Origin: Eledone cirrhosa | Lineage: Eukaryota | Direction of reading: 5' to 3' | Assembly (NCBI GenBank): GCA_964016885.1 | Contig: OZ024742.1 | Coordinates: forward strand, 303,614,001 to 303,678,000 | Length of the DNA stretch: 64,000 nucleotides | Shown: piece after piece, positions 2,491 through 63,243 of the stretch | Numbering within the stretch: position 1 is the first letter of the stretch | How the letters are laid out: the number at the start of each line of letters is the position of its first letter | Notes under the pieces: model-generated | What the model saw: the letters and a program-made list of their open reading frames with translations, nothing else | Told to the model about the DNA's origin: nothing | The model's database searches: none | Made by a program: the position numbers and the translations under genes

Positions 2491-2563
<73 letters not shown>

Positions 2564-2576
2564 TAATAATAATAAT
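2491..2576. repeat. (AAT)n microsatellite at the 3' end of Tx1-like element 1
   Basis: Direct read; abuts GATTTCATTTATT, the reverse complement of the element terminus. Confidence 0.97.
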
Positions 2577-2833
2577 GATTTCATTTATTGGCCACAGGGG
2601 CCGACATATAGGGGACAATACAAAAGACTGGGACAGTGGGGTTTTACAGACAAATCGAGTAAACAATATGAATAACAATAACAAAGTAACAATAAAGTAA
2701 CAATAAAATTACAAGAAAAAAATTCCCCAATAGGGGGGAGGATCACCTCTCAGGTACCCCCATCAGTCCTGAACGACACGACGCTTCGAGAGCACCCTGG
2801 AAGGGCACCCCTCTCCTTCTCAAGTTTACATAC

Positions 2834-5800
2834 CTACAGCCGCATGACCAGAGTGGGCCCACTCACACGGGCCATTCTCGCCACATTCACCCACCTTTCA
2901 GCAAATGTACTGGGGGGGGGGGGGGGGCAGCACTTCTCTCTCCACCCTCACCTTCCTTTCCAGGTGAAACTTGAAAAAGTTGACGAGGGATTGGCCGAAG
3001 AGAAAAGTGTCTGTCTTCAGTCCTTTCAACCTCGTCCACCATACAACCTCTTTCGCTACTACCACCAGACAGAGGAAAATTGCCTGCCCTTCCTGGCCAA
3101 AACAAGGCGGCGGGTCGATCTTCACTATGGACTCGGCCGATAGACGGATCCGTTCTACACGCGACAACAGCTGTTCAACATAACTCCCCAAGTCAGTAAT
3201 GCGCGGACACTGGACGAGTGCGTGCAGAATGGTTTCGTCGCTCTGTGCGCATCTCGGGCAGGTCCGTCTGACAGCCCTTCCGTGCCTGTAGAGTTTATCT
3301 CGAACCGGCAGTGCCCCCCGGTAGCACTGCCAAGCGAGGGATTTTTGTAAATTATCCATTGTCCCCGGCTCGAAAGTCCTCCGGTACAGACTAGTTAGTT
3401 CGACTTCGTTGACTCCTAGAGCCTCTCCGAGTGTGTCGTCGCACTTGCCCACCACTAATCCTCTATAGAACTCGAGAGTGGAAGTTTCACTGACCGCATT
3501 GCCCGCCTGGTAGAGGGCAGTGAGTGCCTGGCAACATTCCAGATGCCAGTCACCCAGTCTCGGTATCTTCTTGACTCAAGACTGCAGCTCAGTCAAAGAA
3601 ACGAGCTGCGGAAAGGCCCACCTGACAAACGGCGACCACACCTGTTCACCGTTTAGACAGAATATCTGGAGATGCCGCAGCCTCAGCGCGTGCCTGTGCA
3701 TCATTAGCCACGGCATGCCCAGCCCTCCACGTAGAGGGTACTGGCAGCAGATGGACCGCCTCACCAGCGGAAACTGAACCCTCCACAAGAATTTGAAGAG
3801 GACCCGCTCCAAGATGGCGAGGCGCGAACGGGGCCAAGGGACGACAGTCAGACTTTAGTAGATGACGGACGCGATGTACGCGTTGGCCACCTCCGTCCGA
3901 CCTTTCAGTGATAGCCTCATCCCAGCCCCTTTCTGGGTGAGATTGGCTACCCTGCCCGTCACCTCGTCCCAATTCTTATCCACCTGGAGGTCTGCCCGAA
4001 CCAAACCCCTAGCATCTTTACCGGTCCCTCCGTCCAGCGCCTAACGACGCTGTTGGACGGCATGGACTTGCCTCTCCAGGTGCCGAGTTGCAAGCCCACT
4101 GACTTTTCCGGGTTAACTTTTGCTCCCGTCAACCTTTCATATTCCTCCAATAAGTTGCCGACCACCTCGATTTCTGAGGTGTCCGACACCATCACGGTGA
4201 TGTCGTCCGCATAAGCCGACACAGACTTTCCTTATCCCGGTTTGAGCGGGATGTCCTGCAACAGCTCCAGCTTCCGCAGTAAAGGCCCGAGAGTCAATAC
4301 GTACAGAAAGGAGGAGAGGGCACCCTTGACGGAGCGATCGGGAGACCTGAAACGGTTCCGAGAGGTGGTCATTAATTTTGACCATCGAGCAGGTGCCGCT
4401 GTGCATTGCCGCGATCCAGCTTCTGAAGATGGGGCCGAAGCCAGCCGCCTTGAGGACAGCCTCCATGTACCGATGGTCGACCCTATCGAATGCTTTCGAT
4501 TAATCTAAATTGATCAGAGCCCCACCGAAGCCAGGTTTACACCCTACCCTCTCTATGACGTATCGCATTAGGTGGAGGTTGTCGTGTATGGACCTGGTTG
4601 GGATTGCGCAAGTTTGCGCCTCTCCAACCAAATCCCCGACGACAAGCGCCAACCTCTTCGCTAAAACCCTGGCCAAAATCTTAAACTCTGTGTTGAGCAG
4701 AGTTATGGGCCTGAAATTTTCTAATGTGTCCCTCTTGTTCTTGTCTTTCCTTATCAGCGTCACTACGCCCCGGCTCACAGAACTGGGAATACTCCCTTTT
4801 GCTGCCAGTTGCAGTAGAGGGCTTCGAGGAGATTGGAGTACAAATCTGGCATATTTACGTAAAATTCGTAGGGCAGACCATCCAAACCGGGTCACTTGCG
4901 CCTTATGCAGCCGACAAGGGCATCCTGAATCTCGGCTGAAGTAATTGGTTTTTCGCAGCGCCCAGCGTCAGCCATCGAGAGTTGCGGCAAGCCATCGAGG
5001 TAGGGACTGAAGTCCGCCACCATGACTGACCCGCCACTTCCCCCGAACAACCGAGCAAAATGTTGGCGAAGGCCTCACACATCCTCTTGGAATCGCTCAT
5101 CTCGTGCACTTCTCGGTCCGTCAAAGACCGAATCGTGGTTTTATTACCACGCTGCGCCTCTGCCACGCGGGCCCATCGAACAGCCTTGGTTCCCTCGTTT
5201 CTCAGAGCACGCGCCTTAGCTCTGACAATGCAACCTTCGTGTTTCGTATTGAAGAAATGGTCTAATGCCATATCTCGCCGCTAGCACGTCTTTCTATTTT
5301 TCTCTAACGCTACTTCTTTGCTAAACTCTATCGACATTACTCTAATCTCTCTTTTGAGAGCCCCCCCCCCCCCGCCAATCTATTGTTGACGACTCCCCTT
5401 GTCAACTTTTTCTTCACTAAATTGTTGACCTGGTCCCTGTAAGCCTTACGTGTCGGAAATGACATGTTTAGCTTCCAGTAACCAGGTCCTAACCTACGCG
5501 TCTTATCTAGGTCGACCATACAGATCACAAACTTGTGATCTGAATAGGCGACCGTTTCAAAACGTGGACAGCTTACACTATTTCTGTCTATTTTCCTAAT
5601 GAATATCCTGTCTATATACGATCTAGATGACCCTATGCGGTTAGTCCAGGTCCACACTGGCGCATTAGGGAAATCTAGTCGGTACCTGTCAGACAGTTGG
5701 AACTGGCTGATCAGGTTCTTGAGGCTTTTGCACACACACCCCCCCGCTCCTATCGGATACTCCCACACAGTCCCAGCGTGCGTCTAAGATGCCGTTCCAG

Positions 5801-6190
5801 TCCCCCGCTAACAGTAAAGGGTGAGACGTACCCAGAAAGGCTTCCAGTAGGAGCATAGACGGCCACCAGTCTAAAGGCACCACCTTCGTTATTGTTCACG
5901 TCCAGGACCACGAACTTCCCGTCCGGGTCCCGGAAGATCGACCTTACCTCGAGATCCAGGCCTTTAGTAAACAGCACTGCCACCCTGCCTCCCAATCCCG
6001 GCCGGCTAAAAGATGCAAAGATCTGATAGTCGTCGAAAATGGGGGCTAGTGCGCGCGTGTTGGAAATCCTGGTCTCGCTGACTGCAATTACATCCATTTC
6101 TATAGACCTGAGGTCGTTGAGCAGGTGAACCTGCTTCCAGGACGATCCCAGGCCTCGAACATTTAAACATCCTACACTTAATACGGCCAT
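2834..6190 (-). pseudogene. Tx1 element 1 ORF2 (APE endonuclease, RT, zinc finger), frameshifted
   Basis: Fragments MAVLSVGCLNVRGL, LLLAGDWN, SYIDR..SDHK, GPGYWKLN, FRPITLLNTEFKILA, LRQGCP, AYADD, GGLGMP, CPRCAQSDETILHALVQC. Confidence 0.93.
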
Positions 6191-6221
6191 GTTGGCAGGT
6201 TAAACAGAGAGAGAGGAAGGT

Positions 6222-8185
6222 TTACTTACCTTCCGGGCTCTTGTGAAGGTCGGGTTGTTCGACCTCCATTGTTGGTGGGGTTTCTTTTGGGAACCCCTTT
6301 AAAAGTCTTGAAGTGGGTTTTATGTTCGGGGTTCCCACGTCCCGAGGAAAGCTGTCTCGTATTTCTTTGAATATGTCGAGCGACATTCGCACCAGAACCA
6401 AATCTTCCGGCACGCGAAATGTGCTCGATTTAAAAAAGTCCCCCTCTTTTTGTATATTTTCACTTCGTGCTACGAGGGCCATCAGTTCCTTGTTGGCCCT
6501 CCTGACGAGCACGAAGTTTTGTATGTTTTGTTGGTGTGATTTTATTTGTTTGCGTGGCTGTGGTGGTGATGGTTGTGGTGGTGATGATTTTGGTGGTGTT
6601 GTTTCGGTTGTATCTGTGTTTGTTGTGAGTGCGGTGTCTGTGGTTTCAGATGTTTGTGTGTATATTTGTTCTTGCGTCTGTTTCGGTTGTTTGCGTTTGG
6701 GGGATTCTGGTGATGGTGATGGTGGCGTTGATGTTGGTGTTATTGGAGAGATGTTTACGTGGGTGGTGTCTGTGTTTTTTTATTGTGGGTGATTTTGTGC
6801 TTTGTTGAGTTTTTTCTTTTCTTTTTGTGCTTCCTTTTTTGTATTTTGGGGGATTTTGGTTTTCCCTCATTTTCACTACTGGTAGATGAGGGGTCTGTGT
6901 CTGTAAGTGGATCTGTATGTATGTTTATGGTTTTATTGGTGTGTGTATTTTTTGGGGGGAGGGGGAATTTGACAGCTTTCCGCGTTTCCCTCCTGGGTGG
7001 TCAATGTTGCTGGTGGTCTTTATATTGGTGTTGTTGTTGGTGGTTTTGCCGGTGCTGGTGTTGGTTGTGGTTGTCGCCCCGGCGTCGGCAGCTGTGGAGC
7101 CTTTCGACCCCTTGCCTTTTTCAGCAGTTGAAGGCAGAAGGCTCGCAAATGGGTTTTTTCCCCACAAACAAAACACTGCAGCCTTTTGCCTTCGGTCATA
7201 ATGTGAATGACGGTCCCATTCTGAAGGCGGATGTGGTCCGGGATTGTCTTCACATTCTCGGGCCTGATCTGGCCTGATCTGGCCGTTCTGGTCACTTCTA
7301 TAGGGACGGTATCCGTCCCCTCCACAATCACACATCCCAGAAGCCACCACATGTCAAGTCCTGGTGGGATCTGGGAATGCAGAGACGGGCCGTTTTTTTT
7401 CCCATGTCGGAGGGGTACATTATGACCTTGCTGGTTTTGCAAGGAGTCATAGCGTGTTTCATAGCGAGGGCTTCTGACTTGAACAACACCGAAATGGTGC
7501 CGTACTGTCTGCCCCTCTCTATGTACTGGGTGTCTTCTCTGATGCACCTCAGCACGACTTCGACATCTTTTGTGGGATTAAAGCTGCCCTTTTGGTTTGT
7601 GCTGAGATGCATCTATAATGCACCGTTCTGCGCTCCACTGCCTCAATAGCTTCTACCGGGACAGTTAAGTTGGCCCAGGTTTGCTCTTGCTTGATGAGCT
7701 TCCATGCCTGGGCCAACTTTTCATCTTTGTTTGAGAGGTCCATGTTGAAGCATGGCCTCTTTTTTGCTGCTGCCGCAGCGAAAGTGTTCTTCTTGTTTTC
7801 GTTGGGGGTGTTGTTGTCGTTGTTCTTGTTGGTGTTGTTGTTAGCACTGTCGCTGTTATCATTGTTGTCTTTGTTGCCACCGTTGTTCTCGGTGCAGTTG
7901 GTATTGTTGCTGTTGGTGTTGTCGCTATTTGTTTTCATGTTAGTGGTGTTGATATTGTTGTTGTATTTGTTATTTTTTTTTGTTATCTGTATTTGCGTTG
8001 TCGCTGTTACTGTCATTTTTGTCAAAATTAGAGTTATCATTGGTATCATTGGTATCTTTGTTTACCTTGTTTGTGGTGGTCTTTGTGTTATCAATGTGTG
8101 TTAATTTCTTTGTAGCGCTCCTCTCAACTTCTACGTCATTGTCGCACAACAGCCGCCATATCGCTGGGGGGCGTGGCTCAGCCAT
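6222..8185 (-). pseudogene. Tx1 element 1 ORF1 (gag-like, CCHC zinc knuckle), frameshifted
   Basis: Starts MAEPRPP; N/T-rich low-complexity N-terminus; CFVCGEKTHLRAFC knuckle; stop at 6222, about 30 nt before the ORF2 ATG. Confidence 0.85.
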
Positions 8186-8383
8186 GTTTTTCTTTTCTTC
8201 GTAAATGTTTTAACATGTAAAAAAAGTTCAAATATTTCGGCCCAAATATTATACTTTCCCCTTCACGGGGCAAAGTCTAAGGGCTTATATCCCTTACACA
8301 ACAAGAAATATTTAACAACAAATAATTTTAACAGGCAAATAAAGCGACTTACTGTGAGCGAGCTAAATACGTCCGCTTGGACC

Positions 8384-8398
8384 AATAATAATAATAAT
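8384..8398. repeat. (AAT)5 junction between Tx1 elements 1 and 2
   Basis: Reads ...GGACC AATAATAATAATAAT GATTTCTTTATTGG... Confidence 0.95.
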
Positions 8399-8691
8399 GA
8401 TTTCTTTATTGGCCACAATTGGCTCACATCAAGAAAAACATTACAGACGTCACAGGACGGTACGATGTGGGTTTTGTGCGTGTAAATATTTTTATTATTT
8501 ATATAAGAAAAGAAGAAAAAAAACATAGAAACATATATATATATAAACAATAAAAATGAAAATTGAAACAATGAAAAATTCCCCAATAGGGGGGAAACCT
8601 CCGAGGGTTACTCGTGGCGAAAACCACACAAAAGACCACGGCATATGACCACCAGGGCAAACGCCCTCTCTCAATTTTTCCATTTCTCAAA

Positions 8692-11600
8692 CTACAGACG
8701 TATATTCAGAGCGGTCCCGTTCACTCGGACCATTCTCACTACATTCACCCACCTTTCAACAAACTTGCTGGAAAGCAGCACTTGCCTCTCCACCCTGATT
8801 TTCCTCTTTAAGAGAAACTTGAAAGAGTTAAATAGGGATTCGCCGAAGAGGAAAGTGTCTGTTTTTAACCCTTTCAACCTTCTCCACCACACAATCTATT
8901 TCGCCATGGCTACTAGGCAGATGAAAACCGCCTGCCCTTCCTCCTCGAAGGAAGACGGCGAGACCATCTGCACAATGGACTCAGTCGATAACCGGATCAG
9001 TCCTACACGCGACAGCAACTGTTCGACATAGCTCCACAAGTCAGCAATGCTCGGGCACTGAACAAGTGCGTGCACGATGGTTTTGTCTCTCTGCGCGCAT
9101 CTCGGGCAGGGTCAGCTGACGGCACTTCCGTGCCTGTAGAGCTTATCTCGAACCGGCAGCGCTCCCCGGTAGCACTGCCAGGCCAGGGATTTTTGGAAGT
9201 TATCCATAGGCCCTGGACTGAGGGTTCTCCGGAAGCGACCAAACAGCTGATCTTCTTCGACGCCCAGGATCTCTCCGATAATATCGTCGCTCTTCCCCTC
9301 CACTAGTCCTCTATAGAACGGCGAGGTGGATGTTCCACCGATACTGGTGCCCAGCTGGCAGAGGGCAGTGAGCGCCTGGATACATTCCAGTTTCCAAGCG
9401 CTATCCCTCGGTTTTTCTCTGACCCAGTACTGCAGCTCAGTCAAGGAGACAAGCTGCGGGAAAATTGCCTGGCGAAGGCGTCCACACCTGTTCACCGTCA
9501 AGGAAGCACCAGAGATGTCGCAGCCTCAGCGCATATTTGCGCATCATCAGCCATGGCATGCCCAGTCCTCCACGCAACGGGTGTTGACATCAGATGGATC
9601 GTCTGACCACGGGAGCGCGTTCCTTCCACAAAAAGCGAAAGAGGAGGCGTTCCATTTTGGTGTGAGTTGGGCCGGGGCAAGGGACGACGGTGAGGCGGTA
9701 GCAGATGGCGGATGCGATGTACGCATTCGCCACCTCCGCCCGGCCTTTCAGGGACAGCTTCCTCTCGGCCCATTTCTGCGTGAAGGAGGCCACTTTGCTC
9801 GTCACCTCGTTCCAGTTTTTCTCCATCTGGAGGTCCGGTCCGAACCAGACCCCGAGCAATTTAACCGCTCCGTCCGTCCAACCCCGCACGACGCTGTCGG
9901 ACGGCATGGACTTGCCTCTCCGGGTGCCGAGCTGCAAGCCCACCGACTTTTCCTGGTTTATCCTTGCTCCTGTCACCGCTTCGTATTCCTTGAGAGCGGT
10001 GCCGAGCATCTGGACGTGTCTGGTGCTCGACACCACCACGGTAACGTCGTCGGCGTAAGACGATTCGGATTTCCCGCATCCCTCATTGCCCCAAGTTTGT
10101 GCAGTAACGGCTCGAGAGCCAATACATACAAGTGGGACGAGAGGAGACAACCCTGGCGGATTGAGCGCATGATGCTGAACGGCTGCGACAGGTGACCGTT
10201 CACCCTCACTATTGAGCATATGTCGCTATACATCGCAGCGATCCAACCCCTGAAAACGGGCCCGAAACCGGCTGCCTCGAAGACCGCCGCCAAGTAGCGA
10301 TGCTCGACCCTATCGAGTGCTTTGGATTGATCCAAGTTGATCAGGGCCCCACCCGTGCCAGGTTCCTTACCCACCCTCTCTATGATGTATCGCATGAGGT
10401 GGAGGTTGTCGTGTATAGATCTGTTCGGAATGGCGCATGTCTGCGCCCCACCCACCAGACCCCTGACGACAAGCGCCAACCTCGTTGCTAACACCTTGGC
10501 CAAAATCTTGAACTCTGCATTTAGCAGTGTTATGGGCCTGAAATTATCGATAACATCCCGCTTGTTCGGGTCTTTTCTCAGCAGCGCCACCGCTCCCCGG
10601 CTCACAAAACTGGGAATGCTCCCGTTCCGCTGCCAGTTGCAGTAGACGTCTGCCAAGAGGTCACCGAACAAGTCTGGCATAAATGCATAAAGCTCGTAGG
10701 GCAGACCATCCAGACCTGTCGATTTACCCTTCGTGCAGTTAGCCATCGCTTCCCGTATTTCACCGGCTGTTATTGGCGTTTCGCAACACTGTGCTGCGGT
10801 CGTCGAGAGCCGAGGCAGTCCGTCGAGCTATGCACTGAAGTCCATGCCCCGATTCGGGCCGCAGCTGCTCCCGAACAGTTCAGCAAAGTGCTGCTGAAAA
10901 GCTTCACACATCTGCTCGGGCTCGAGCAACACGCACCCGTTTTGGTCAGACAAAGACCGAATTGTGGACTTGTTGCCACGTCACGCCTCTGCCACCCGGG
11001 CCCATTGGACGGCTTTTGTCCCCTCGTGTTTCAGAGCACGCGCTCTAGCCCTGACAACGCAGCCTTCGTGTTTTGCATTGAAGAATTGGTCGAGTGCCAA
11101 TCTCGCCGCAAGCACGTCGGTTGCGATGCCTGTCCTAAACGCCTCCTCTAGCTTTCTGACTAGCTCTCCCTCTACTCTATTTTCCTCTATCACTAGTCCT
11201 TTGCTAAACCTAAGCGACTCTACTTTAATTACTTTTTTCGGGGCGAACCACCACCTGTTGTTGACGACCGCTCCCGTCAACGTCCGCTTAACTAATACGC
11301 TAATCCGGTCTCTGTAGGCTTTGCACGCCGGGAAAGACGCGTTAGGCTTCCAGTAACCGGGCCTTTGTCTATGAAGTCTGTCTTTGTCGATCTCACAGAT
11401 CACAAATTTGTGGTCTGTGTAGTCGATTATTTTAAATTGTGGACAACTTATACCAGCCTTATCTAGTTCTCTGCAGAATACCCTATCGATATACGATCTG
11501 GACGACCCGATGCGGTTTGTTCATGTCCACATTGGCACATTCGGGTATCCAGTCGATACCTGTCAGACAGTTCAAAACGCCTGAGCAGGTTGGTGAGGCT

Positions 11601-11980
11601 CTTGCACCCTCCTCCCCTATCCACAAGCCCCACACAGTCGGGGCATAGACGGCTACTAGCCTTAAAGCGTTGCCTTTGGTGCCGCTTACGTCCAGCTCCA
11701 CCGACTTACCTTCTGGGTCTAGGAAGATGGCCCGTATGGCGAGATCCAAGCCACTCCGGAGAAGGACGGTAACCCCTCCCCCCGATCCTGGACGGCTGGG
11801 AGATGCGTATACATCGTAGCCGCCGAAGATCGGTGCGAAGGCTCGTGCTTCGGAGATTCTGGTCTCACTGATGGCCACCGCATCTATGTTTAGTGACCTG
11901 AAGTCGTTGAGCAGTTGACCCTGCTTCCAAGATGACCCCAGGCTACGTGCATGTATACTGCCTATTCTGAGTACGGCCAT
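8692..11980 (-). pseudogene. Tx1 element 2 ORF2, with stops, frameshifts and small deletions
   Basis: ORF fragments 11483-11980, 10981-11403, 9973-10746, 9590-10219, 9112-9501 and 8692-8892 are colinear with the ORF2s of elements 1 and 3. Confidence 0.92.
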
Positions 11981-11999
11981 GTTGGATTAGAAACGTGGC

Positions 12000-13920
12000 A
12001 AGTGAGAAAGTGGTGAAGGGACAGGAAACCGTCCCTTCTGCTGGTCATGGATGTTTCCAAGAGGATGTCAGTGTATATCCTCTTGGTAACCGACCCTCTG
12101 AAGTCTCCAACTGCGTTGGGGAATTTTTGTTTTAAAGGTTTGTACTGTTCTATTGAGATTTCAATGATCCTTATGTTTGTCGGGAGAGTTCTTGGTGTTG
12201 GTGGGGTGTAGCAGTTTTTTTCTGTGATGTCTGTGTGCTGCTTTATATATTGTATGAGTTCTTTTTTGCCATGTTTATGGCTGTGTACTTTGTTGGGGGG
12301 GGGGGGTGATTTTGTTGCTGTTTTCTTCTTGTTGCTGTTTGGTGTGTGTGTGTTTTGTTTTGTTTGCGTTGTTGGTGTTTTTGGTGGTGGTGTGGTTGTT
12401 GTTGGCGGTGGTGCTTGTGCTGGTGTTGGTGATGGTGGTGGTGTTGCTGCAAGTTTCCTTGCTGCCTTTACACCTATTTGTGTGCCTTCGCTTTTGGAGG
12501 GTGAATCTAAGGTTTTCTTTCTTTTTTGTTTTTGTGGCAGACCGTTTGCCACTTTCCTCCCGCCTCAAACTCCATGTCAAATTCCGTGGCGTCTGGGAGG
12601 GGTATGTGATCCACGGCTGTTGGTGGTGATAGTGGAGCCCTCTTCGGCCATTTTGTTGCTGGTGTAGCTACTTCAAATGTAGCTATTGGTGTTGCCGCCA
12701 ATGATGCTGCTGCTTTAGTTGTCCGTGGCGTTGGTACGGATGCCACGGACGTTGTCCTCCTACTCACCGTGGAAGGGGCTTCTGCATTTATTGCCTGTCC
12801 TGCTCTTGATAGCAGCGGATCAGGGGTCGGAAGGAGGGGTCCTCTTCTTGGTTGTCTTCTGCGTGCAGAAGGCCCTGAGGTGACCCTTCTGCCCACAGAG
12901 ATAGCACTTTGGGCGCCTTCCTTCCACACTTATAGGGAGTTGGAATCCTTTCTCGAGGTCTATCATGTCTGGGATGGCCTCGATGCACTCCTGGTCTGTC
13001 TGTATTAGCATGCCTATTCCTGACCAGTTCTCTCTTCCCATTCTCTGTATTTGCAGTATGATGGCCTTCTCCTCGATTCCAGCAAGTACAGACGCGGCCA
13101 ACCAAGGTATGACCTGGGTCACTTGGATCCTCACAATTTTCTGTCCGCAGTAGGAGGGCACCAAGACTACCTCCTCACTCGTTAGGGTTTCCAAAGTGTG
13201 AGACTTCGCCTCTTGGGAGGTGGCGAAGAGTACGTCTACTGTGGTGTACGTTTTGCCTCGGGTGATGTGGCTTTTGCGCGCCCAGGCGCACCCCAAGGCC
13301 TTTTGGATTTGAGCCTCCGTGGATCTCTCCACCCAATGTGACGTTTTGCTTACGGTGCGGTAACTCACCGTGCGCAGCTGCTGACCTTTCTTGTCACCAT
13401 GGCTCTGACGACTGCCATCTCCTCCTCCGTGACTAGCACTATCTCTATACTTCGGGCCACACCTGCGAAAGAAGTGGCCCCGTTTTCAGCGGCACCACTA
13501 TTGCTGCCGCTACTACTGCTACTGGTCTTGTTGTTGGTGCTGTTGCCCTTGCTACTGCTACAAACGGTGTTGTTGGTGTTGTTCCTGTTATCACTGTTGT
13601 AGTTGGTTGTGTTTTTGGTGCTACCGTTGTTGTTGCTTTCGGTGCAATTTGTATTGTTACTTTTGTGTTGTCGTTGTTTATTTTCTTGTTAGTGGTGTTA
13701 ATATCGTTGTTGCATTTGCTGTCATTTTTTTCTGTTGTCTGTATTTTAGTTGTCGCTGTTGTAGTAGGTGTGGTAATTTTTTAAAAATTAGTGTACTCAG
13801 TGTTGTTGTCTTTGTTCACGTTGTTTGTGGTGGTATTTGTTGTATTACTTTCTGTGACCCTTCTCTCAACTTTTACGCCGTTATCACACGACAGCAGACA
13901 TTGCATGGGGGCTCAGCAAT
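12000..13920 (-). pseudogene. Tx1 element 2 ORF1 remnant
   Basis: 12820-13368 encodes SVEGRRPKCYLCGQKGHLRAFC; the start appears mutated (AAACATTGCTGAGCC vs AAACATGGCTGAGCC in element 1). The downstream boundary is approximate. Confidence 0.8.
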
Positions 13921-14989
13921 GTTTTTTTAAATTTTTTAAAGTAAAATGTTCAAATATTGTTCAAATATTTGGGCCAAAAGGCCCAAATATACTTTCCCCG
14001 TTACAGGGCAAAGTCCAAGGGTTTATATCACTTACACCACAAGAAAAATTTAACAATAAATAATTATAACAGGTAAATAAAGCGACTTACTAGGAGCGAG
14101 CAAAAAAGACGTCCGAACAGACCCAAAATAATAATAATAATAATGGAATTTTGAGTAAATTGTGCGTATATCGGATAATGTACATTGCTTTTTATAGAAG
14201 GTTAATATAAGCAGCATCATACGATTTCCTTTGCAGAACCGCCGCTCCATATATATCTATGAGCATCTGAAAACCACAAACAGAATCTGTTCGGATATTC
14301 GGATACATTTTTCTATCTAACTATCTCTCCCTGTCTCTTTCTCTTTATATATATATATATATATTTCTCCCTCTCTCTGTATATATAAACATATATATAT
14401 ATATGCGTGTGTGTGTATGTGTGTGTGTATGTGTGTGTGTGTATACATTTATATGTGCTGTGTCAGAAAGAATATCGAAGAGGAAATAATATAAATTGTC
14501 GGAACAATAACAGGATGAAGGTACAATGGGTTTTGAATGGTTACATTCAACTTTATGAGCAATATTACCATTAAGACAGGAAGTGGGCAACCAAAGAAAG
14601 TGTCAGTGAGAGAAGAGAGGAGGGAGATTTATGAATATCTGTGAATTTAATCAGTGTGTACGTGTGCTGATAAGCTTTACATGATATATGCAGTGTATGA
14701 GGGTATATGGATGGAGGGAGTTAGTGCATTTAGTCCGTATGTATGTTGTGCTGATTGGGGTGCAAAATGAAAGGTTGTCTTGTGATAGGGTACAAAATTG
14801 AAGGATGGATTGTGAATGGGTCTCAAATGCGAGCGTATGTGGTGGTAGGTTGCAAGATAAAAGGGTGTAAAGAAGTCACTGCATTTTTCAAATTCAAAGC
14901 AACATAACAATCAAGGCGGAAAACATGATATTCTCCAGTGTGATAGGAAACCTTTGATAAAAAAGAACATCACAGATTGACATATTGTA

Positions 14990-20915: not shown

Positions 20916-21574
20916 TGTGTGTGTGTGTTAATAATAAATAAATACAGTTCATATGATATTCAGCTCGCATTCGAGGAGTGTATTAAAGTGACCAAGAATT
21001 GAATGATATTTTAAAACATTATTCATCCATTACATACCACATTTCTTGCTAGAGGGCAAATATAACAGATACTTCATTGCTTCATTTAAATATTAAACCA
21101 GTAACAATGACATAAAGATTAATTACTGTTTTTAATGAAATATGAAAATATAAATTTGTCAGAAAATTTGTTGTTGACTCTTATGAGAGATCTACGTTTT
21201 TGTTCTGATTAGATCTGGCAACAAAAAAATGTTTTATATGTCGTCTGGTGTTCGTCTTAAGGAATGGCTTTTTTGACAAGTTGATTTCATTTATATTTTA
21301 TTACAAACAATTACAGGCGACGATGAATATTTCTTCCGGGAAAAGAAGAAGAAATAGTGATATTGTACATATCTGAATATATGCACAGTATATGCGTTTA
21401 ACAAAACAGAAAGGTTAAAACTTTACGTTTGATAGTCTTCCTCGTTTCGTGACAGCATGATTATTATGTTTTGCGACAGTTATTAAAATAGGTCTTCGAT
21501 GTTAAGCAGAGATGGCAAAATATGTTTGTTGTAGCCTTTTTATCCCCAACGAGTGCCTAACGCCGATAAACTAA

Positions 21575-21760
21575 TATTTGTTTCTACTTTTGGTACAAGG
21601 CCAGCAATTACCAAATGCATTACTGGTACTTTATTTTATCGACCCCGTAAGGATGAAAGGCAAAGTTAACCTCGGCAGGATTTGAACTCAGAATGGCAAG
21701 GGCCGTAACTCTATGCGTCAAAGCATGGCGTCAGACCCTCTACCGATACAGCCGATCCAC
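21575..21760 (-). mobile_element. tRNA-derived Nin/Deu-domain SINE
   Basis: B-box GAGTTCAAATCC and core TTTGCCTTTCATCCTTACGGGGTCGATAAAATAAAGTACCAG on the minus strand. Confidence 0.88.
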
Positions 21761-23219: not shown

Positions 23220-23570
23220 GTGAGGTTTTTTTACAAAATGAAAAATAACCGAGGTGTCCTACACGAGTGAAAGTATAAAGAAAAAAAGATGAAATGAAAA
23301 TGCAACTCGAGTCTTATTTTTAAAAATATATATATATTTATTTGGTTCCTTTACCGGTTTCGCAGTTCTTCTGCTTTTCAAAAGTAGAGTTGAGATGGAG
23401 GGTCTGTGGTTTTTCTCACAGATGTGAGAAAAACCACAGACCCTCCATCTCAACTCTACTTTTGAAAAGCAGAAGAACTGCGAAACCGGTAAAGGAACCA
23501 AATAAATATATATATACTTTTAAAAATAAGACTCCAGTTGCATTTTCGATTTCAAATTTTATCTTTATAT
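23213..23570. mobile_element. Palindromic mini-PLE with a hammerhead in each arm
   Basis: Arms of about 125 bp mirror around 23421-23422; HHR at 23459-23494 (+) and its mirror; (TA)n on both sides. Confidence 0.8.
23459..23494 (+). ncRNA. Minimal hammerhead, U3-A8 core variant
   Basis: CTT-TTGAAAA-GCAG AAGAA CTGC-GAAA-CCGG-TA-AAG, with AATAAA just downstream. Confidence 0.7.

Positions 23571-37633: not shown

Positions 37634-40717
<3,084 letters not shown>

Positions 40718-43633: not shown

Positions 43634-43708
<75 letters not shown>
43634..43708. repeat. (GATA)n at the 3' end of Tx1 element 3
   Basis: Direct read. Confidence 0.97.
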
Positions 43709-43920
43709 TTCTTTATTTACCATAAAGGCATAAAAAGAAGGGACAAATACAAAGGGGGAGTTTACATATAATCGAGTAAAAAGGGTGTAACATGAAAATA
43801 ATCGAAAATAACCAAAAGGGAGGGGACGTGATGGGGGTTGCACACACCCCCGAAAAAGTGTGCAATCCTTTGCCCGGGGAGCACATGGAGAAGGTGCTCC
43901 TCTCTCCTTTACTTCTTTAC

Positions 43921-46900
43921 CTACAGGATGGTATACAGAGAAGGCCCATTTACACGAGCCATTCTCGCCACTATCACCCACCTTTCATAAAACTGCCTGT
44001 GGCCAAGCACCTCTCTCTCCATTCTTATCCTTCTTCCGAAGTGATATCGGAAGAAGTAGACCAGACTATGGCCAGAGAGGAAGTTGCCTGACCTCAGACC
44101 TTTCAATCGTGTCCACCAAACAACCTCTTTCAACATGGCTATTACGCACAGAAAAACCGCCTTTGCTTCCTTTGTGAAGAGGGGAGGCGGTTTGATTGTC
44201 ATCACGGACTCGGCGGTCAATTTAATCGGCGCCACCCGCGACAGCAGTCGTTCGGCGTAGCCCCACAGATCAGCCACGCCCGGACATTGCACCAATGCGT
44301 GCGCAACGGTTTCTTCGTGACGCACGCATCTAGGGCAAATCTTTTTTGAGGGATCCCTGCCCGGGCGCCCGTGTCTGTAGAGCCTCTCTCGAACGGGTAG
44401 AGCCCCCCGGTAGCACTGCCAGGCCAGTGACTTCTGGAAGTTGTCCATTGGTCCTGGGCCGAAAGTCCTACCGAACAGGCTGGCCAGTTCGTCTTCTTCC
44501 ATGTCCAGCGACTCTCCAAGGGTGTCATCGCCCCTGCTAGCCGCCAGCCCTCTATAGAATGATGAGGTGGATTCTCCACCGATGGCCTGGCCCGCTTGCC
44601 AGAGAGCCCTGAGCGCCTGAGCACACTCAGTGTGCCAGTCTCCCAGTTTTCCGGATCTTTGCTTGACCCAGGAATGTAGCTCGGTGAGCGAGACGAGTCT
44701 CGGAAAGGCTCGTTTCACGAACGGAGCCCACACCGGTTGACCAGTGAGGAATACCTGTAGGTGCCGTAGCCTTAATGCGTGCCTACGCATCATCAACCAC
44801 GGCATCCCCAGCCCTCCTTTCGAAGGTTGTTGGCAGCAGATGGATCTTCTCACCATAGGAGGACGCTTCTTCCAAAGAAATTGGAAGAGCATGCGTTCCA
44901 TGGTGGTGAGTGTTTCCTTAGGGCAAGGCACGACAGTCAGGCGGTAGTAAGTGACGGACGCTATGTAAATGTTCGCCACCTCCGCCCGGCCTTTTAGGGA
45001 CAGCTTACACTTGGCCCATTTCTGGGTTAGTGCAAACACCTTGTTCGTAACCTCGTTCCAGTTCTTTTCCACCTGGAGGTCCGGTCCAAACCAGACCCCA
45101 AGCAACTTTACCGGGCCCTCCGTCCAGTGTCCGACGACACCGTCAGGAGGCATCGGTCTGCCTCTCCACGTTCCGAGTTACAGCCCGATGGATTTTTCCC
45201 GGTTCAGTTTCGCTCCTGACAACCTTTCGTACTCCTCCAGTAAGGTACCGATCGCCTCGATCTCCGAGTCGGTTGATACCATTACTGTTACGTCATCGGC
45301 GTAGGCCGACACCGCTTTGCTCAATCCTGGTTCCAGGGGGATACCCTGCAACAACTCCAACTTCCTCAGTAAAGGCTCGAGAGTCAATACGTACAGAAGG
45401 GAGGAGAGAGGGCACCCCTGTCGAATGGATCGTGTGATTTCGAACGGCTTCGAAAGGTAGCCGTTCACCTTGATCCTAGAACAGATGTGGTTGCTATGTA
45501 GGGCAGTGATCCAGCCTCTGAAAACAGGACCGAACCCAGCCGCCGCTAGCACCGTATCCAGGTAACCATGGTCGACCCTATCGAAGGCCTTAGACTGATC
45601 TAAGTTGATCAGGGCCCCACCGAGGCCGGGTTTGTAGCCAACCCTCTCTATGATGTATCGCATGAGGTGGAGGTTATCGTGAATGGACCTGGATGGGATA
45701 GCACATGTCTGCGCATCTCCCACCAGGCCACCCACGACAAGCGCCAAACTCTTTGCTAACACCTTGGCCAAAATCTTTAACTCTGTGTTTAGCAGGGTTA
45801 TGCGCCGAAAATTATGTATATTATCCCCCTTGTTCTCGTCCTTCCTCACCAGCGTGACTACGCCCTTGGCTACAGAACAAGGAATTCTGCCGTTCTGCTG
45901 CCAATTGCAGTAGACCGCTTCGAGGAGTTCGGAGAAGAAGACCGGCATTGCTAAATAAAGTTCGTAAGGTATACCATCGAGACCTGGAGATTTGCGTCTG
46001 CTGCATTGGTTCAGCGCATCTCCGATCTCATCAGCCGAGATTGGTCCCTCACAGGACTCTGCCTCTTCGTTCGAGAGACGCAGCAGGCCGTCGAGGTATG
46101 GACCGAAATCAACGCCCCCGCCCGGACCCTCGCCTCCCCCGAACAATCGGGCAAAGTGCCTTTGAAAGGCCTCGCACATCTGCTTAGGCTCCCAGATCAC
46201 CCGTCCATCTTCGTCTTGCAACGACCGGATGGTGGATCGATTTCCACTCTTAGCTTCTGTCACGCGGGCCCATCCAACGGCTTTGGCCCCCTCATTACCT
46301 AGAGCACGTATTTTACTTCGAATGACGCAGCCTTCGTGCTTTGCATCGAAAAACTGGTTCAAGGCCGTCCTCGATGCCAGCACTCTGGCCACATCTTCGC
46401 TCTTGATTGCCTCTTCTAATTTACCTGTTAATTCTTTCTCGTTTCTATTCCTATCGGCAGCTAACATCTTGCTATAACTTATTGATTCTGTTCTAATCTC
46501 TCTTTTGAGAGATGCCCACCATCGGTTGTTGACGATTGCACCCGTCAACCTCTACTTAACTAATCTGCTAATCCGGTTTCTGTAAGTCTCTTTTGCCGGT
46601 AAAGACAAATTAAGTTTCCAGTAACCGGGACCCTGTCTATGTGTTTTCTCGAGATTGACCACGCAGGTCACTAATTTGTGATCCGTGTAGCCAACCGTGC
46701 GCATTTCTGGACAGCTTAATATGTCCCTATCCTTACTTCTAACTAAGAATCTATCTAAGTACGATCTAGATTGACCACTGTGGTTTCTCCAAGTCCAGGT
46801 AGGCACAGTTGGAAAATCTAGTCGATATCTATCGACCAAGTTAAAACGGTCGAGTAACCCCTTGAGGCTGTTACACCCCCCTCTATTAGGACATGCTCCT

Positions 46901-47358
46901 GCATAGTCCCAACGTGCATCCAGGATGTCATTCCAATCCCCCGCTAGAAGCAGGGAACGCGACGTTCCCAGAAAAGTCTCCAAACGCTGGAAAAAGTCGG
47001 GCCGTTCAGCTCCGAAAGGGGAGTAGACGGCGACCAGTCTCAAGGCCGCACTTTCACTACTGCCAACGTCTAGCACCAACAAACGACCCTCCGGGTCCGA
47101 GTGCACAACCTGTACGGCAAGACCCAGGTGTTTTTGCAGCAGTACGACAACCCCACCCCCACCTCCAGGTTGACAGAGAGATGCATGCACCTCAAAGTCA
47201 TCGAAGGTGGGGGCCAGCTGGCGCACGACGCTGATTCGAGTCTCACAGATAACCATTACATATATACTACATGACCTGAGGTCATTTAGAAGCTTTGCTT
47301 GCTTCCAAGTTGAGCCCAGGCCACGTGCATTCAAACATCCTACTCTTAACACATCCAT
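43921..47358 (-). pseudogene. Tx1 element 3 ORF2: a single reading frame of 1146 codons with two nonsense codons
   Basis: ORFs 46552-47358, 45178-46548 and 43921-45153 share one frame, broken only by TAG (46552) and TAA (45178); GCLNARG, AGDWN, YTDH, RQGCPLS, AYADD, CPRC..HALVQC. Confidence 0.93.
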
Positions 47359-47391
47359 GTGGGCGGCAGAGCCAAAGGAGAGTGTAGAGAC

Positions 47392-48945
47392 CTACCTTTT
47401 CGCTTCCCGGGGTTCGGGTTGCACGACTTCGGGGGTGTTGGGTGAAGGGGTGTCTTGTGGTGGTGTGGGGTCGTCAGTGTGTGGTGGGGTTGGGGTGTTT
47501 GGAGTTGTGTTGGGGAGGGGAAGGGGAGGGGGAAAGCTTTTTAGTAGGACGCGGTTTATGGGTTTGACAGAGGGTGGTCCTACCTCCTCCTTAAAATGCT
47601 TTTTTAGTTTTTGGTAGAGGTTCATTGGGATCTTTATTAGTTTTAAATGTGGGTAGTTTTCTGACGAAACAAAGTTTACACCTTCGGTTTGTACCGAAGG
47701 ATTATTGAATATGAGCTCATTTAATTTATTATTGTTTCTGTTGATGTAAGTATAGTGTAATGTCTTTTTTTCCGATGGTGTGAGTGTTTCGAAGAGGGGA
47801 GGGGCAGGTTTGGTTTTGTTTGTTGCTGGAGGGGTGTTTTCTGTTTTGTTGGATTGTGTTGAGATTTGGGTGGGGGTTGTTTGTCCTTGTGTGTTTTGCA
47901 CATGTTTTCTTTTTTTCCTTTTAATCTGTCTGAAGGACTCCGTTTCTTCCTCCGAATTCGTTGGGTTATCTTCAGTGTTGGAGGGAAGAGGTATGTTTGC
48001 TGGTAATGTTTCCGTGTTGGTTTTCTTTGTGGGGGAGATGGATGTCACTATGTTAGACTGTGTTGTGTGTTGTGTCTGCGGTGGTTGTGTTGTTTTATTG
48101 AGTGAGAGGTTGGGTGGGCCTGTATTTTGTTTTGGGGTAATGTGTTGTGACTGTTTGTGTTGTGGTGGTGTTGTGGTTTTACTGAGGGACGGGTTGGGTG
48201 GGACTGAGTTTTGTTGTTTGTTTATCTGTTGTGGTGGTGGTGGTGGAGCTGGTGTTGGTAGAAGGGTTTTCTTTTTGTTGAGTTGGGGACAAGCGGCCTT
48301 CAGGTGCCCTCTGCCTGCACAGATATGGCAGGACGGCCTTCTCCCCTCCACGCTAATGTTTATATACCCGTGGTCCTCTAATAGGATTCTGTCGGGTATT
48401 TGAGCGATGCGTTCAGGCTTCATTTGTACTACCAGCTCTATACCTGTTCCACTGAACGCATTGCCTGTGGTTTTCCCAATGGAAATCACGTTGTCATTCA
48501 CTGGATCGATGAAGCCAGCTATGAGCCAGCAGTAGTCCACATCTGGCATCATTGCATCCAGCCATATGCGTTGAGTTCTTTTCCCCATATAAGATGGATA
48601 AAAGGTGAAATTTTTCGAACGAATCGGTGACAAAGCACTTTTTTTTGCCGCCGATTCGTTCTTCATGATAATTGCTAGGCTTCCATACAGTCTGTCTTTT
48701 CTTATGAAAGTGGTTTCATTAAGTACTTCTGTGAGTACTGTTTTGATATCTGCTTGAGAAGGCTGTTCAGGTTTTTTTGTACTGTTGTTGATGGTCCGAA
48801 ACTTGACCGTTCGGCTTTCAATGTCTTTCGTGAATTCTTGAGGCATTTTTACCGATAAAATACCATTCTCTCCTTCACTTATGTATTGTTTGGCGTCCGT
48901 GATCCTTCGTACCACATCTGAAATGTTTTCCGCTATATAAGTCAA
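47392..48945 (-). CDS. Tx1 element 3 ORF1 (gag-like, CCHC knuckle); N-terminus probably in the frameshifted ORF 48942-49271
   Basis: 517-aa open frame with SVEGRRPSCHICAGRGHLKAAC and a P/T/Q-rich C-terminal half; stop 33 nt before ORF2. Confidence 0.85.
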   Translation of the reverse strand: MTYIAENISDVVRRITDAKQYISEGENGILSVKMPQEFTKDIESRTVKFRTINNSTKKPEQPSQADIKTVLTEVLNETTFIRKDRLYGSLAIIMKNESAAKKSALSPIRSKNFTFYPSYMGKRTQRIWLDAMMPDVDYCWLIAGFIDPVNDNVISIGKTTGNAFSGTGIELVVQMKPERIAQIPDRILLEDHGYINISVEGRRPSCHICAGRGHLKAACPQLNKKKTLLPTPAPPPPPQQINKQQNSVPPNPSLSKTTTPPQHKQSQHITPKQNTGPPNLSLNKTTQPPQTQHTTQSNIVTSISPTKKTNTETLPANIPLPSNTEDNPTNSEEETESFRQIKRKKRKHVQNTQGQTTPTQISTQSNKTENTPPATNKTKPAPPLFETLTPSEKKTLHYTYINRNNNKLNELIFNNPSVQTEGVNFVSSENYPHLKLIKIPMNLYQKLKKHFKEEVGPPSVKPINRVLLKSFPPPLPLPNTTPNTPTPPHTDDPTPPQDTPSPNTPEVVQPEPREAKR

Positions 48946-49503
48946 AGATTTCTTTGTTTTCTGTGCAAATGAAATCTTGTCGTCTGCTTTGTTTTCTGAT
49001 ATGGTGTTATTTTTGTGTTTGTTGTGTCTTTGTTTGTGTTATTAGTATTGTCATGCAATTTTTCAAATTTTTTTTTTTCGTTGTTGGAATCCAAGTCCAG
49101 ATTTGTGTTTTCGTCATTTAATTTTTTCTCCGCAGATTCGTCTGTTTTTATTTTAATTTTTCCTTCCTTCTCTATGACGTTAGTTGGGAAGGAAGGGAGG
49201 ACTAAAGCGTGCGAGCTTACAACTCTTACCGCTGTCCCCCCACCACTATTTTCGTTCGCTGCGTTTAACATTTCTGTTAGACGATTGAAATTTTTTACAC
49301 AAAATTTTTTAAAACAGGTTTTTCACCTCTAGGAGGGGTAAAGATGAGCTGACCAACCGCCTGACAGTTCAGACGGAGGGTCAAGCTACACAATTGTATC
49401 AAAATTAAGTTTGAACTCACAAAATTTCCTCAAAAAATTTGAACAAAACTTCTGTGCGAAGTGAATGACATCCACACTGTAGAACAGACGACAGCTAGAT
49501 TGT

Positions 49504-49622
49504 ATAGATAGATAGATAGCTAGATAGATAGATGAATAGATAGATAGATAGATAGATAGATGAATAGATAGATAGATAGATAGATAGATGGATAGATGAA
49601 TAGATAGATAGATAGATAGATG

Positions 49623-49704
<82 letters not shown>
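49504..49704. repeat. (GATA)n at the 5' side of Tx1 element 3
   Basis: Direct read, with some GATG/GAAT variant units. Confidence 0.97.
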
Positions 49705-50315: not shown

Positions 50316-50719
50316 TAGCAAATGCGAAGAAGCATATCATTTTTAAAATGATATATGTAGAAAGGCGCTGGAACAGGGAGGAGTGGCATGCTCCCCTCTA
50401 ATAATTATAATTTTCCCCAAACTACCAAAACATTACATCTACTTGGATATGTGCTACAATTTGACCATTTTAGAGTGCAAAGAGCTAAACTAATCACTAC
50501 AACTAAATTGTCCAAATTTGCCCCCACCCTTATTCAAAAATGTTTACACCGCGCCTGGTGAGTGTATATATATATATACTCGCACACATATACATGAGCA
50601 GTGCGATACTAGAGACATGTCCATTACAACGATAAAAACAGGGAGCCAATCATCTGTCAAGATATGTAACTTTCGTTATGCAATAAATTATTTACAAGTG
50701 AAACTTCATGGTATTATGA

Positions 50720-50890
50720 GTAGAAGGTCGGACACCATGCTTCCCAGCATAGAGTTACGTCCCTTTGCGGTCTGAGTTCAAATCCTGCCGAGGTTAACTT
50801 TGTCTTTCATCCTTACTGGCTTGATAAAATAAAGTACCAATAATGCACCGGGATAATCGCTGGCCTTGTGCCAAATGTAGAAACAATTAT
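50720..50890 (+). mobile_element. Nin/Deu-domain SINE
   Basis: GAGTTCAAATCC B-box, Nin-like core, AGAAACAATTAT end. Confidence 0.85.
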
Positions 50891-51547
50891 TTATTATATA
50901 TATAAGTATGTGTGTGAGAGAGAGAGTTTGGGCTGGTGTATGTGTGAGTGTGTATGTGTTTGTGTTGTGGTGTATACAATCAACTAGGTTTTATGAAACT
51001 TGCCTATATATCCATTCAGAACGGAGACGGTCAGCTACACAGTATCACATACACACAAGATCTGCAAAGCGAAATGTAGTAGTAGTGTTTATACATCTCT
51101 TTGAATAAGAATCGATATATTTCATTTTAGACTCAGTTGGTTAGGTGTTTAATAAATATGGTGAATACCCATAATTCCTCCGCTATGTATTTTTTTAATG
51201 TGCGCAATCATGAAGAGTTCCTTGGTGCTAGCAGGAACGATTAACACCTAACAAATACCATTTCATTCTGCTCATCAACACTTTAGTTGTATAAAACGAA
51301 AATTACTTCTAGGCATACTAGATTCAGAGACTCCAAAGAAACATTTCTTTTGTATCAAGCATTCAATACATTGAATACGATATTCTTGGAGTTTTCATTT
51401 AACATGTCTAAGAAGAAGACTATTTTCAGTGTGTAAAATTTGCATTTAAATTTTATAAGAAGGCGTGTCTGAGAATGTTCATATGTATCTTTAAATATAT
51501 ATTCATGAAATTAGTTAAATAACTAAATATATCTTATTATATATATA

Positions 51548-52125
51548 GGCGGTGAATTGGCAGTATCGATAGAGGGTAGGACATGCTTTCCAGCATAGTT
51601 ACGTCCCTTTACAATCTGAGTTCAAATGCCTCCGAGGTTAACTTTGCCTTTCATCCATACAGAGGTCGATAAAATAAAATACCAGTAATGTACTGGGTAA
51701 TTGCTGGCCTTGTGCTAAAAGTAGAAACAATTATATATATAGGCAGTATCGGTAGAGGGTCGGACGCCATGCTTTGACGCATGGAGTTACGGCCCTTGCT
51801 ATTCTGAGTTCAAATCCCGCCGAGGTTAACTTTGCCTTTCATCCTTACAGGGTGATTTAAAATAAAGTACCAGTAATGCACTGGATAATTGCTGGCCTTG
51901 TGCCAATAGTAGAAACAATTATATATATATATATAGGCGGTGGATTGGCAGTATCGGTAGAGGATCGGACGCCATGCTTTGCAACAAAGAGTTACGGCTC
52001 TTTATGATCTGAGTTTAAATCCCGCCCAGGTTAACTTTGCCTTTCATGATTACGGGGTCGATAAAATAAAGTACCAGTAATACACTGGAATAATTGCTGG
52101 TCTTGTGTCAAAAGTAGAAACAATT
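51548..52125 (+). mobile_element. Head-to-tail array of three Nin/Deu-domain SINEs (51548-51732, 51742-51920, 51936-52125) separated by (TA)n
   Basis: Each copy has an A-box (T/A)GGCAGTATCG, a B-box, the Nin core and an AGAAACAATT end. Confidence 0.9.
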
Positions 52126-52140
52126 ATAAATATATATATA

Positions 52141-52208: not shown

Positions 52209-52290
52209 ATATATATATATATATATATATATGGAATAGAATGAAACGAAATTTCATTTCTCACTCTTAATACGGCACTTACTTAAATGT

Positions 52291-52864
52291 AAGTATGTAT
52301 GTATACGTACATACATATATGTATACAGACGTACAGTAGTATGTATATATATACATACATGCACACATATATATGCACGTATCGGTTTACCGAACATTTA
52401 TTATAATGCTGGGTTTGTTTGTTTGTAAACAAACAAACAGGCCGAATTACGCCGTACAGTGTTTAGGCAACCACGTCACCTTTTTGTTCAACACTGAACT
52501 CACTCGATATGCAAATTAGGCTGCTCAGCCTAATTTGCATAAGATAAGTTAATATGCATAAGGAAAGTATATACTTTCAGACGTTCAACCATCTGGCAGG
52601 AAGGTATACGATGCTGACGATAGCTAATAAGCTTGAAACTAGTACATCGTTCCTGTGTCAGTGTTGAACAAAAAGGTGACGTGGTTGCCTAAACACTGTA
52701 CGGCGTAATTCGGGCTGTTTGTTTGTTAACAAACAAACCGAGCATTATAATAAATGTTCGGTAAACCGATACGTGCATATATATATGTGTGCATGTATGT
52801 ATATATATATACATACTACTGTACGTCTGTATACATATATGTATGTACGTATACATACATACTT
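52291..52864. mobile_element. Fold-back element: about 207-bp inverted arms around a spacer containing a hammerhead
   Basis: 52291-52497 mirrors 52658-52864. Confidence 0.85.
52608..52650 (+). ncRNA. Canonical minimal type I hammerhead ribozyme
   Basis: ACGATG-CTGACGA-TAGC TAATAA GCTT-GAAA-CTAG-TA-CATCGT. Confidence 0.85.
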
Positions 52865-52865
52865 A

Positions 52866-52950
<85 letters not shown>

Positions 52951-59456: not shown

Positions 59457-59471
59457 CGTTTGTATATGTAT

Positions 59472-59658
59472 AATTGTTTCTACTTTAGGCACAAGGCCAG
59501 CAATTACCCAGTACATTACTGGTACTTTATTTTATCGACCCCGTAAGGATGAAAGGCAAAGTCAACCTCGGCAGGATTTGAACTCAGATCGTAAAGGGAC
59601 GTAACTATGCTGGAAAGCATGGCGTCCGACCCTCTACCGATACTGCCAATCCACCGCC
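59472..59658 (-). mobile_element. Full-length Nin/Deu-domain SINE
   Basis: Reverse complement begins GGCGGTGGATTGGCAGTATCGGTAGAGGG; B-box, Nin core, AGAAACAATTA end. Confidence 0.9.
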
Positions 59659-62590: not shown

Positions 62591-62646
<56 letters not shown>

Positions 62647-62648
<2 letters not shown>

Positions 62649-63243
62649 TGGTTACACAACAGTTAGTTCGCCATACCGAGAACAATTGTTTCACCTTAGC
62701 GGATCCTCAGCTCGTAATGGACGTGGTTATAAGAAATAGGAAGGACAACCGTACGAACGCGCATACGCAGAATCAATCACTTCACACAGGCAATACTAAA
62801 TTGAGTGCGAGAGGTGTAAGGGAGATAACTGCGAAAGTCAGAAAGTTTCTAGTTGATAAGAAAAGTACGATGTTGTTGTAATTCAATCCGGAGCTTTGTA
62901 GCTATGTAAGAGGTTTTTCCAGACAAAGCTCCGGATTGAATTACAACAACATCCTAATTTTCTTATCAACTAGAAAATTTCTGACTTTCACACTTATCCG
63001 CCTTGCACCTCTCGCACGCAATTTACTTTCTACCTGTGTGAAGTGATACTTTCTGCGCATGCGCGTTCGTACGGTTGTCCTTCCTGTTCCGTATAACCAT
63101 GTCCATTACGAGCTGAGGATCCACTAAGGTGAAACAATTGTTCTCGGTATGATGAACTAACTGTTGTGTAACCACTTCTACCTAACTCGTCCCTTGGACT
63201 GAGTGCTCTACCTCTACGGATATTTTTCCAGTGTTCTAGCACT
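62647..63243. mobile_element. Long imperfect palindrome of mini-PLE family A, with a hammerhead in each arm
   Basis: 62647-62899 mirrors 62923-63177; HHR CGAG-CTGAGGA-TCC(A/G)CTAAGGT-GAAA-CAATTG-TT-CTCG at 63109-63146 (+) and 62677-62714 (-). Confidence 0.87.

Follow-up and report, generated by a model that had tools for sequence, protein, structure and literature searches.

Endonuclease hairpin sequence follows ancestry, not target, in a five-target radiation of Tx1-like LINEs in Eledone cirrhosa

Across 18 families or subfamilies of LINEs in the genome of Eledone cirrhosa, the sequence of the endonuclease (EN) hairpin follows ancestry, not target. The original prediction, drawn from three copies in a single window (the whole stretch of 64,000 nucleotides analysed here, contig OZ024742.1, positions 303,614,001 to 303,678,000), proposed that this short loop may encode the choice of microsatellite; in that simple form the claim does not merit further pursuit. 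We consider it probable that several DNA-facing parts of the EN together set the landing site, probably along with target repeats at the 3' end of the RNA, and that the hairpin tip is at most a partial contributor.

How the ENs of APE-type retrotransposons choose their targets is a standing question, as grafts between distant enzymes lost activity and integration was not retargeted. The value of the present material lies in a radiation onto five targets with very close sister pairs. The sister subfamilies M1 and M2 are separated by 12 EN residues, and families D and A by 16-28 from their relatives, so that the question of target choice becomes directly testable with few swaps, pointing to loops other than the hairpin. 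A natural series for retargeting had been anticipated from the elements of the window; such a series exists, and M1 and M2, with the same loop and different targets, make the better one.

Three LINE copies and their endonuclease hairpin

The three LINE copies in the window (Table 1) are each about 5.7-5.8 kb long. Elements 1 and 2 are 72.5% identical in nucleotides, and element 3 is 68-69% identical to either. Minus-strand translation gives WTWRNHSGQSRSYLDR at 46750-46797 (element 3), WTWTNRIGSSRSYIDR at 5607-5654 (element 1) and WT*TNRIGSSRSYIDR at 11482-11529 (element 2), where the stop is a TGA, and this confirmed the loop peptides that had been read there. The agreement of elements 1 and 2 in TNRIGSS is thus real in these copies, but it is not a family trait: the best 30 relatives of element 1 carry ANRIGSS in 24 cases, TNRIGSS in five and TNRLGSS in one, so the exact 7/7 match belongs to this copy and not to both families. 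Each element's family has at least 150 copies. In that of element 3 the copies are 99-100% identical over the EN and many have an ORF2 open over its full length, which suggests that this family has probably been active recently.

Table 1. Features of the three elements and their flanks (positions within the window)
Feature	Position	Strand	Remark
Element 1, Tx1-like LINE	2577..8383	-	frameshifts; ATT-targeting family E1
Element 1 EN hairpin loop, TNRIGSS	5625..5645	-	family majority ANRIGSS
(ATT)n target, element 1 3' flank	2491..2576	.	(ATA)n
Short (ATT)n (AAT run) between element 1 5' end and element 2 3' end	about 8384..8398	.	
Element 2, broken Tx1-like LINE	8399..14124	-	EN deletion; ATT-targeting family E2; tandem to element 1
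Element 2 EN hairpin loop, TNRIGSS	11500..11520	-	past in-frame TGA
Short (ATT)n, element 2 5' flank	about 14127..14144	.	
Element 3, Tx1-like LINE	43709..49503	-	young ATCT-targeting family E3
Element 3 ORF2 (EN, RT, zf-RVT)	43921..47358	-	this copy has two internal stops
Element 3 EN hairpin loop, RNHSGQS, ORF2 aa 191-197	46768..46788	-	Ser194 at 46777-46779, L1 Pro197 equivalent
Element 3 EN aa 112-118, alphaB1-betaB3 loop	47005..47025	-	L1 Asn118 equivalent is 115; four residues distinguish family A from its relative M1
Element 3 EN aa 61-66, loop with L1 Lys70 equivalent	47161..47178	-	Arg gained here in ATT clade and M2; candidate determinant
Element 3 ORF1-like frame	47392..49038	-	one CCHC knuckle, visible in translation
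(ATCT)n target, element 3 3' flank	43634..43708	.	(GATA)n
(ATCT)n target, element 3 5' flank	49504..49704	.	(GATA)n

Element 3 has the layout of an APE-type non-LTR retrotransposon of the L1 group. Its ORF2 encodes an APE endonuclease and then a reverse transcriptase (RT) (Pfam: Exo_endo_phos 2.6e-10, RVT_1 1.4e-24, zf-RVT 1.9e-06), a 548-aa frame with a CCHC motif lies upstream, and self-comparison of the window found no terminal repeats (LTRs) at the element ends. The ORF1-like frame gave no match in a Pfam search. Among named relatives the closest comes from Argonauta, a protein with 67% identity over the RT, and points to a probable octopod host. The protein searches otherwise gave unnamed or hypothetical proteins, with no named Tx1 reference among them, and a search of the ESM Atlas returned generic EN/RT clusters only. 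Architecture and behaviour are consistent with membership in the Tx1 clade.

As had been proposed from its position, the motif corresponds to the betaB6-betaB5 hairpin in an APE endonuclease of L1 type. The best match of the EN among solved structures is the loop-graft chimera LR1 (2v0s), whose grafted loop aligns on the motif; an AlphaFold model of the EN (pTM 0.82) places strands at 189-191 and 197-199, the loop having low pLDDT, and the top Foldseek matches of this model are to human L1 EN (TM 0.72-0.75). The loop lies between conserved Thr and Ser anchors just ahead of the catalytic Asp. These anchors, T189 and S199, have the same 10-residue spacing as T192 and S202 reported for L1 (PMC1950540), which makes position 194 the equivalent of Pro197, a residue described as making a minor-groove contact to T+1 in the L1-EN DNA complex (PMC8565326). 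The fold and anchor spacing are thus those described for human L1-EN and its grafts LTx and LR1 (PDB 1vyb, 2v0r, 2v0s, 7n8s; PMC1950540, PMC8565326). Unlike in human L1-EN, with which identity is 17-19% and which acts on TTTT/AA in an element with a poly(A) end, the elements here end in the target repeat.

Landing sites of the families

A loop-flank DNA pattern matched the genome 14,497 times as against 1,079 for a reversed control, so the loop motif is not a product of chance. From the first matches of this pattern, which represent the start of contig C1, together with five further patterns and protein searches, 160 genomic stretches were sampled, yielding 18 families or subfamilies and five targets. 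The patterns see 7-residue loops with the given codons only, part of the sampled copies was picked by loop or by junction (M1 and M2 by junction string), and the junction counts omit copies without a detectable 3' end. ANRNGSS (E2b) and TNHNGQS (P) were considered as true family loops and dropped, because their copies had been picked through a pattern on the very column; unbiased copies at position 194 read I (L184) and S (L199). Trees of the RT region were built from 66 and 83 copies, one of them omitting 16 near-duplicates and short copies, and parsimony refers to Fitch counts on the 18-family tree with pattern-biased cells set to unknown.

The families land in five kinds of site: (ATT)n, (ATCT)n, (GTCT)n, a 69-bp unit within a MITE flanked by TTAA, and a minisatellite of about 72 bp. 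All families share one layout of the 3' end, namely AATAAA, 0-4 bases, GAAA, two variable bases and the target, which places AATAAA 4-8 nt before the target (e.g., window 43709-43720), and a run of eight A was found in 0 of 95 ends. The 3' junction starts with ATTA in 22 of 23 cases in the ATT families, with TGTCT in 11 of 11 in family D and with ACTCT in 7 of 7 in family A (a further set of six gave five ACTCT and one ACTAT); in the ATCT families, 52 junctions divide into 36 TATCT, seven TATAT, five TCTCT, three others and one miscalled, and none starts with ATTAT, TGTCT or ACTCT. With 22/23, 36/52, 11/11 and 7/7 junctions per class, all exceed the 20% of flanks by which target preference in the Tx1 clade is described (PMC4494074). 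In full-length copies the 5' end adjoins the same repeat as the 3' end. The flanking microsatellites named in the original prediction are as claimed, and are real, family-specific targets.

Family A splits the 69-bp tandem unit within a MITE whose inverted ends are flanked by TTAA. Of seven copies inspected, six have the unit on both sides and the seventh is truncated; insertion falls at different array positions. The 100 A-type 3' ends listed comprise 60 in the 69-bp unit and 40 in TATCT-like flanks. Two targets for family A were considered on this account and rejected, as 14 TATCT-type ends proved to be 13 of an H subfamily and one short fragment, and all six of the 69-bp-unit ends that were checked belong to family A. 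Copies of family A (L141-L146, L194, L255-L260) are stacked in arrays near contig ends. The Xenopus element Tx1L makes a target duplication; family A, unlike it, descends recently from a lineage that targets (ATCT)n, and 5-7 bp of target are lost at its junctions. Tx1L inserts in Tx1D, a non-autonomous piggyBac element, and family A resembles this description (PMC4494074) in its landing at a single position of an inverted-repeat MITE with TTAA flanks.

M2 lies in the CT-rich minisatellite of about 72 bp, which stands on both sides of its copies; of ten flanks TRF assigns this period to four, and on visual inspection nine of eleven contain its words. Its junction TATAT is one base off TATCT. 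Where the first variable base is G or A, TATCT comes next in 67 of 77 ends, and where it is T, TATAT comes next in 20 of 23. The two pre-target bases are inherited by subfamily (GT in M1), and such heritable bases, together with AATAAA close to the target and the lack of poly(A), hint at read-through RNA ends. The base before the 3' AGAAA (C in D, T in H/P/M) was considered as co-varying with target; this was weakened, as it is absent from an H subfamily and most families. Family D (L169-L171, L209-L217) has (GTCT)n on both flanks, and nine of its copies form head-to-tail arrays on contig C3, about 5.6-6.8 kb apart. Five ATCT-family copies (L148, L150, L195, L218, L229) lie in (CCTA)n or other TAT-starting minisatellites, a sign of relaxed specificity.

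Targeting of microsatellites and of a MITE by Tx1-clade elements is already established (PMC4494074). The description given there includes the teleost Tx1-clade LINEs Kibi and Koshi, whose targets are (TC)n and (TTC)n, along with Tx1 families of crocodilians that use (TTCC)n/(TTTC)n. Like these, the present elements are APE-type non-LTR families, each on one microsatellite, with related families on related repeats; unlike them, as far as the descriptions in PMC4494074 allow comparison, they occupy (ATT)n, (ATCT)n and (GTCT)n, belong to an invertebrate, and use five targets within a single genome. Thirteen recently active L1-Tx1 families are reported from Octopus vulgaris (PMC13282606), in the available text of which the whole word 'target' is absent. 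A literature search, with Repbase, Kojima and Fujiwara (2004) and supplements outside its scope, found no description of the target sites of this radiation, and a scan of metagenome contigs for relatives with flanks gave 191 pattern matches, of which 0 were confirmed.

Loop sequence and target on the tree

The ATT families, including elements 1 and 2, form one clade with support 1.0 in both RT-region trees, so the loop match between the two elements is one inherited state; shared ancestry had been named beforehand as the alternative to a loop code, and it is borne out. When loop and flanking repeat are mapped onto the tree, the co-variation that the original prediction had foreseen is largely absent. 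Six loops go with (ATCT)n (SNRTGSS, ANRSGTS, TNRSGTS, ANRSGQS, RNHSGQS, ANRSGSS) and three with (ATT)n, and the relation does not hold in the other direction either, TNRSGTS being the majority loop in Ap and M1 on (ATCT)n, in A on the MITE unit and in M2 on the minisatellite. One loop thus goes with three targets and six loops with one, which means that the loop alone does not set the target.

Fitch parsimony counts 19 loop changes versus 4 target changes on the 18-family tree, and loop changes do not generally coincide with target changes: a diagnostic loop change accompanies two of the four switches, at position 194 and, in the GTCT family D, as Asn193. It is at these two residues only that the proposed encoding of microsatellite choice retains some ground. 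The loops of elements 1 and 3 differ at four residues, and 191, 193 and 196 vary without change of target.

Candidate determinants of the landing site

M1 and M2, whose clades are supported at 0.96 and 0.97 on short stems (0.003 and 0.005), are set apart by 12 of 230 EN positions versus 16 of 899 elsewhere (p=0.007), and aa 191-197 are the same in both. Between M1 and A the EN shows 28 differences in 235 positions, 115-118 among them, versus 65 of 901 elsewhere (p=0.02). At two switches, change is concentrated in the EN yet lies outside the hairpin. At the ATT split EN amino-acid change is likewise enriched (p=0.03 vs non-switching families). Arg was gained near the Lys70 equivalent as R63 in the ATT clade and as R65 in M2 (4/5 copies), and both have T at the inferred position -4, where L1 Lys70 is described as contacting DNA (PMC8565326). 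The link between these gains and -4 is a lead only, as it comprises two events and EN column 124 has the same pattern. The copies compared as M1 and M2 (L198, L270-L279 versus L193, L261-L269) are nearly identical in the RT.

In the reading that we prefer, the families would have an A-x-A-x-W^R-A-Y-like site in common, as the 3' junctions suggest, at which the EN nicks the bottom strand. Target-primed reverse transcription would most likely start at a nick placed by several surfaces of the EN that sense mainly the shape of the DNA, as described for L1-EN (PMC8565326). Substitutions in the Lys70-equivalent loop (aa 61-66) would adjust the choice of base at -4, and those in the alphaB1-betaB3 loop (aa 115-118) the choice of bases beside the nick. 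RNA cleavage falls 10-30 nt past AAUAAA; with this signal a few bases ahead of the target, a transcript would stop inside the flanking repeat and could pair with the nicked primer, so that read-through RNA probably reinforces targeting.

According to the published accounts, L1-EN touches DNA almost solely via the backbone, with loop base contacts insufficient for the whole target (PMC8565326), loop grafts are not modular, altering nicking without transfer of donor specificity while LTx integration stayed L1-like (PMC1950540), and recognition is the work of many cooperating residues (PMC1919474). The R1Bm and TRAS1 ENs are, like those studied here, sequence-specific APE ENs, and in them both the hairpin (N180) and Y98, aligned to an L1 Asn, affect cleavage; unlike ours they belong to the R1 clade, with rDNA or telomere targets, and the available text of PMC1919474 describes no closely spaced series of sister targets. 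Against a choice by several surfaces stands position 194, the Pro197 equivalent, which sorts the ATT families from the others. The hairpin can indeed matter, since LTx is reported to have nicked a novel site similar to the donor's downstream sequence (PMC1950540) and the R1Bm mutant N180A shifted the cleavage pattern (PMC1919474).

A further-reaching reading would be a specificity code over three EN loops, in which Arg in the Lys70-equivalent loop (R63 and R65 as two independent gains) selects T at -4, the hairpin tip (residues 193 and 194) tunes +1 to +3, and family A is sent to the MITE repeat by its alphaB1-betaB3 loop (F115-W116). We regard such a code as unlikely, yet if true it would mean that at most a dozen substitutions retarget an APE retrotransposon, a long-standing engineering goal.

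The EN might instead be loosely specific for AT-rich flexible repeats, with the target inherited mainly through the RNA, whose read-through tail pairs with the nicked strand so that a family keeps the repeat of its master copy. This would suit the closeness of AATAAA to the junction, the missing poly(A), the heritable pre-target bases and the switches of A and M2 without hairpin change, and pairing of RNA and target is named as a possible extra factor in PMC1950540. The enrichment of EN amino-acid change at the switches argues against it, as does the retention of (ATCT)n over deep branches despite off-target copies, where a memory held purely by RNA would erode; as the main account we find it improbable.

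Quite improbable is a main code in the hairpin, by which I/L194 would specify ATT, S/T194 ATCT and N193 GTCT, and a loop swap would retarget insertion. Position 194 lies at the hairpin tip and is I or L in every ATT family with unbiased data and S or T in all others, Asn193 is present in 12 of 12 copies of family D, and the three pure microsatellite targets have no loop in common. Each of these associations, however, represents one evolutionary event. Position 194 is one of about 32 EN columns diagnostic between ATT and ATCT (31 of 230, and 32 with position 194, which biased picks had masked), and Asn193 is one of six private EN residues of D. Three database relatives, P0002-P0004, may be further exceptions, as they fall within the ATT clade (87/94) and have D, S and S at 194. 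Family A has S194 and yet the inferred downstream AAT of the ATT families, and with M2 it differs in target from M1 and Ap despite the same loop. The published grafts also failed to redirect integration (PMC1950540, PMC8565326).

An origin of the flanking repeats as tails that the elements themselves make, or through later slippage, and not as pre-existing targets, might be suggested by elements that end directly in the repeat and by the many 5' flanks that are other copies' 3' ends, but it is hardly credible given the same repeat at both ends of full-length copies, the splitting of the 69-bp unit at varying places in the array with loss of 5-7 target bases, and the minisatellite on both sides of M2.

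The window further contains long near-perfect inverted repeats, 82-99% self-complementary, at 40185-40616, 62643-63180, 52284-52871 and 23274-23569, which are likely foldback or MITE elements. A dispersed repeat of about 200 bp, probably a SINE, occurs at 51558-52135 (three tandem copies), 21574-21760, 50709-50904 and 59463-59658, and also comes after short ATT runs at several element ends.
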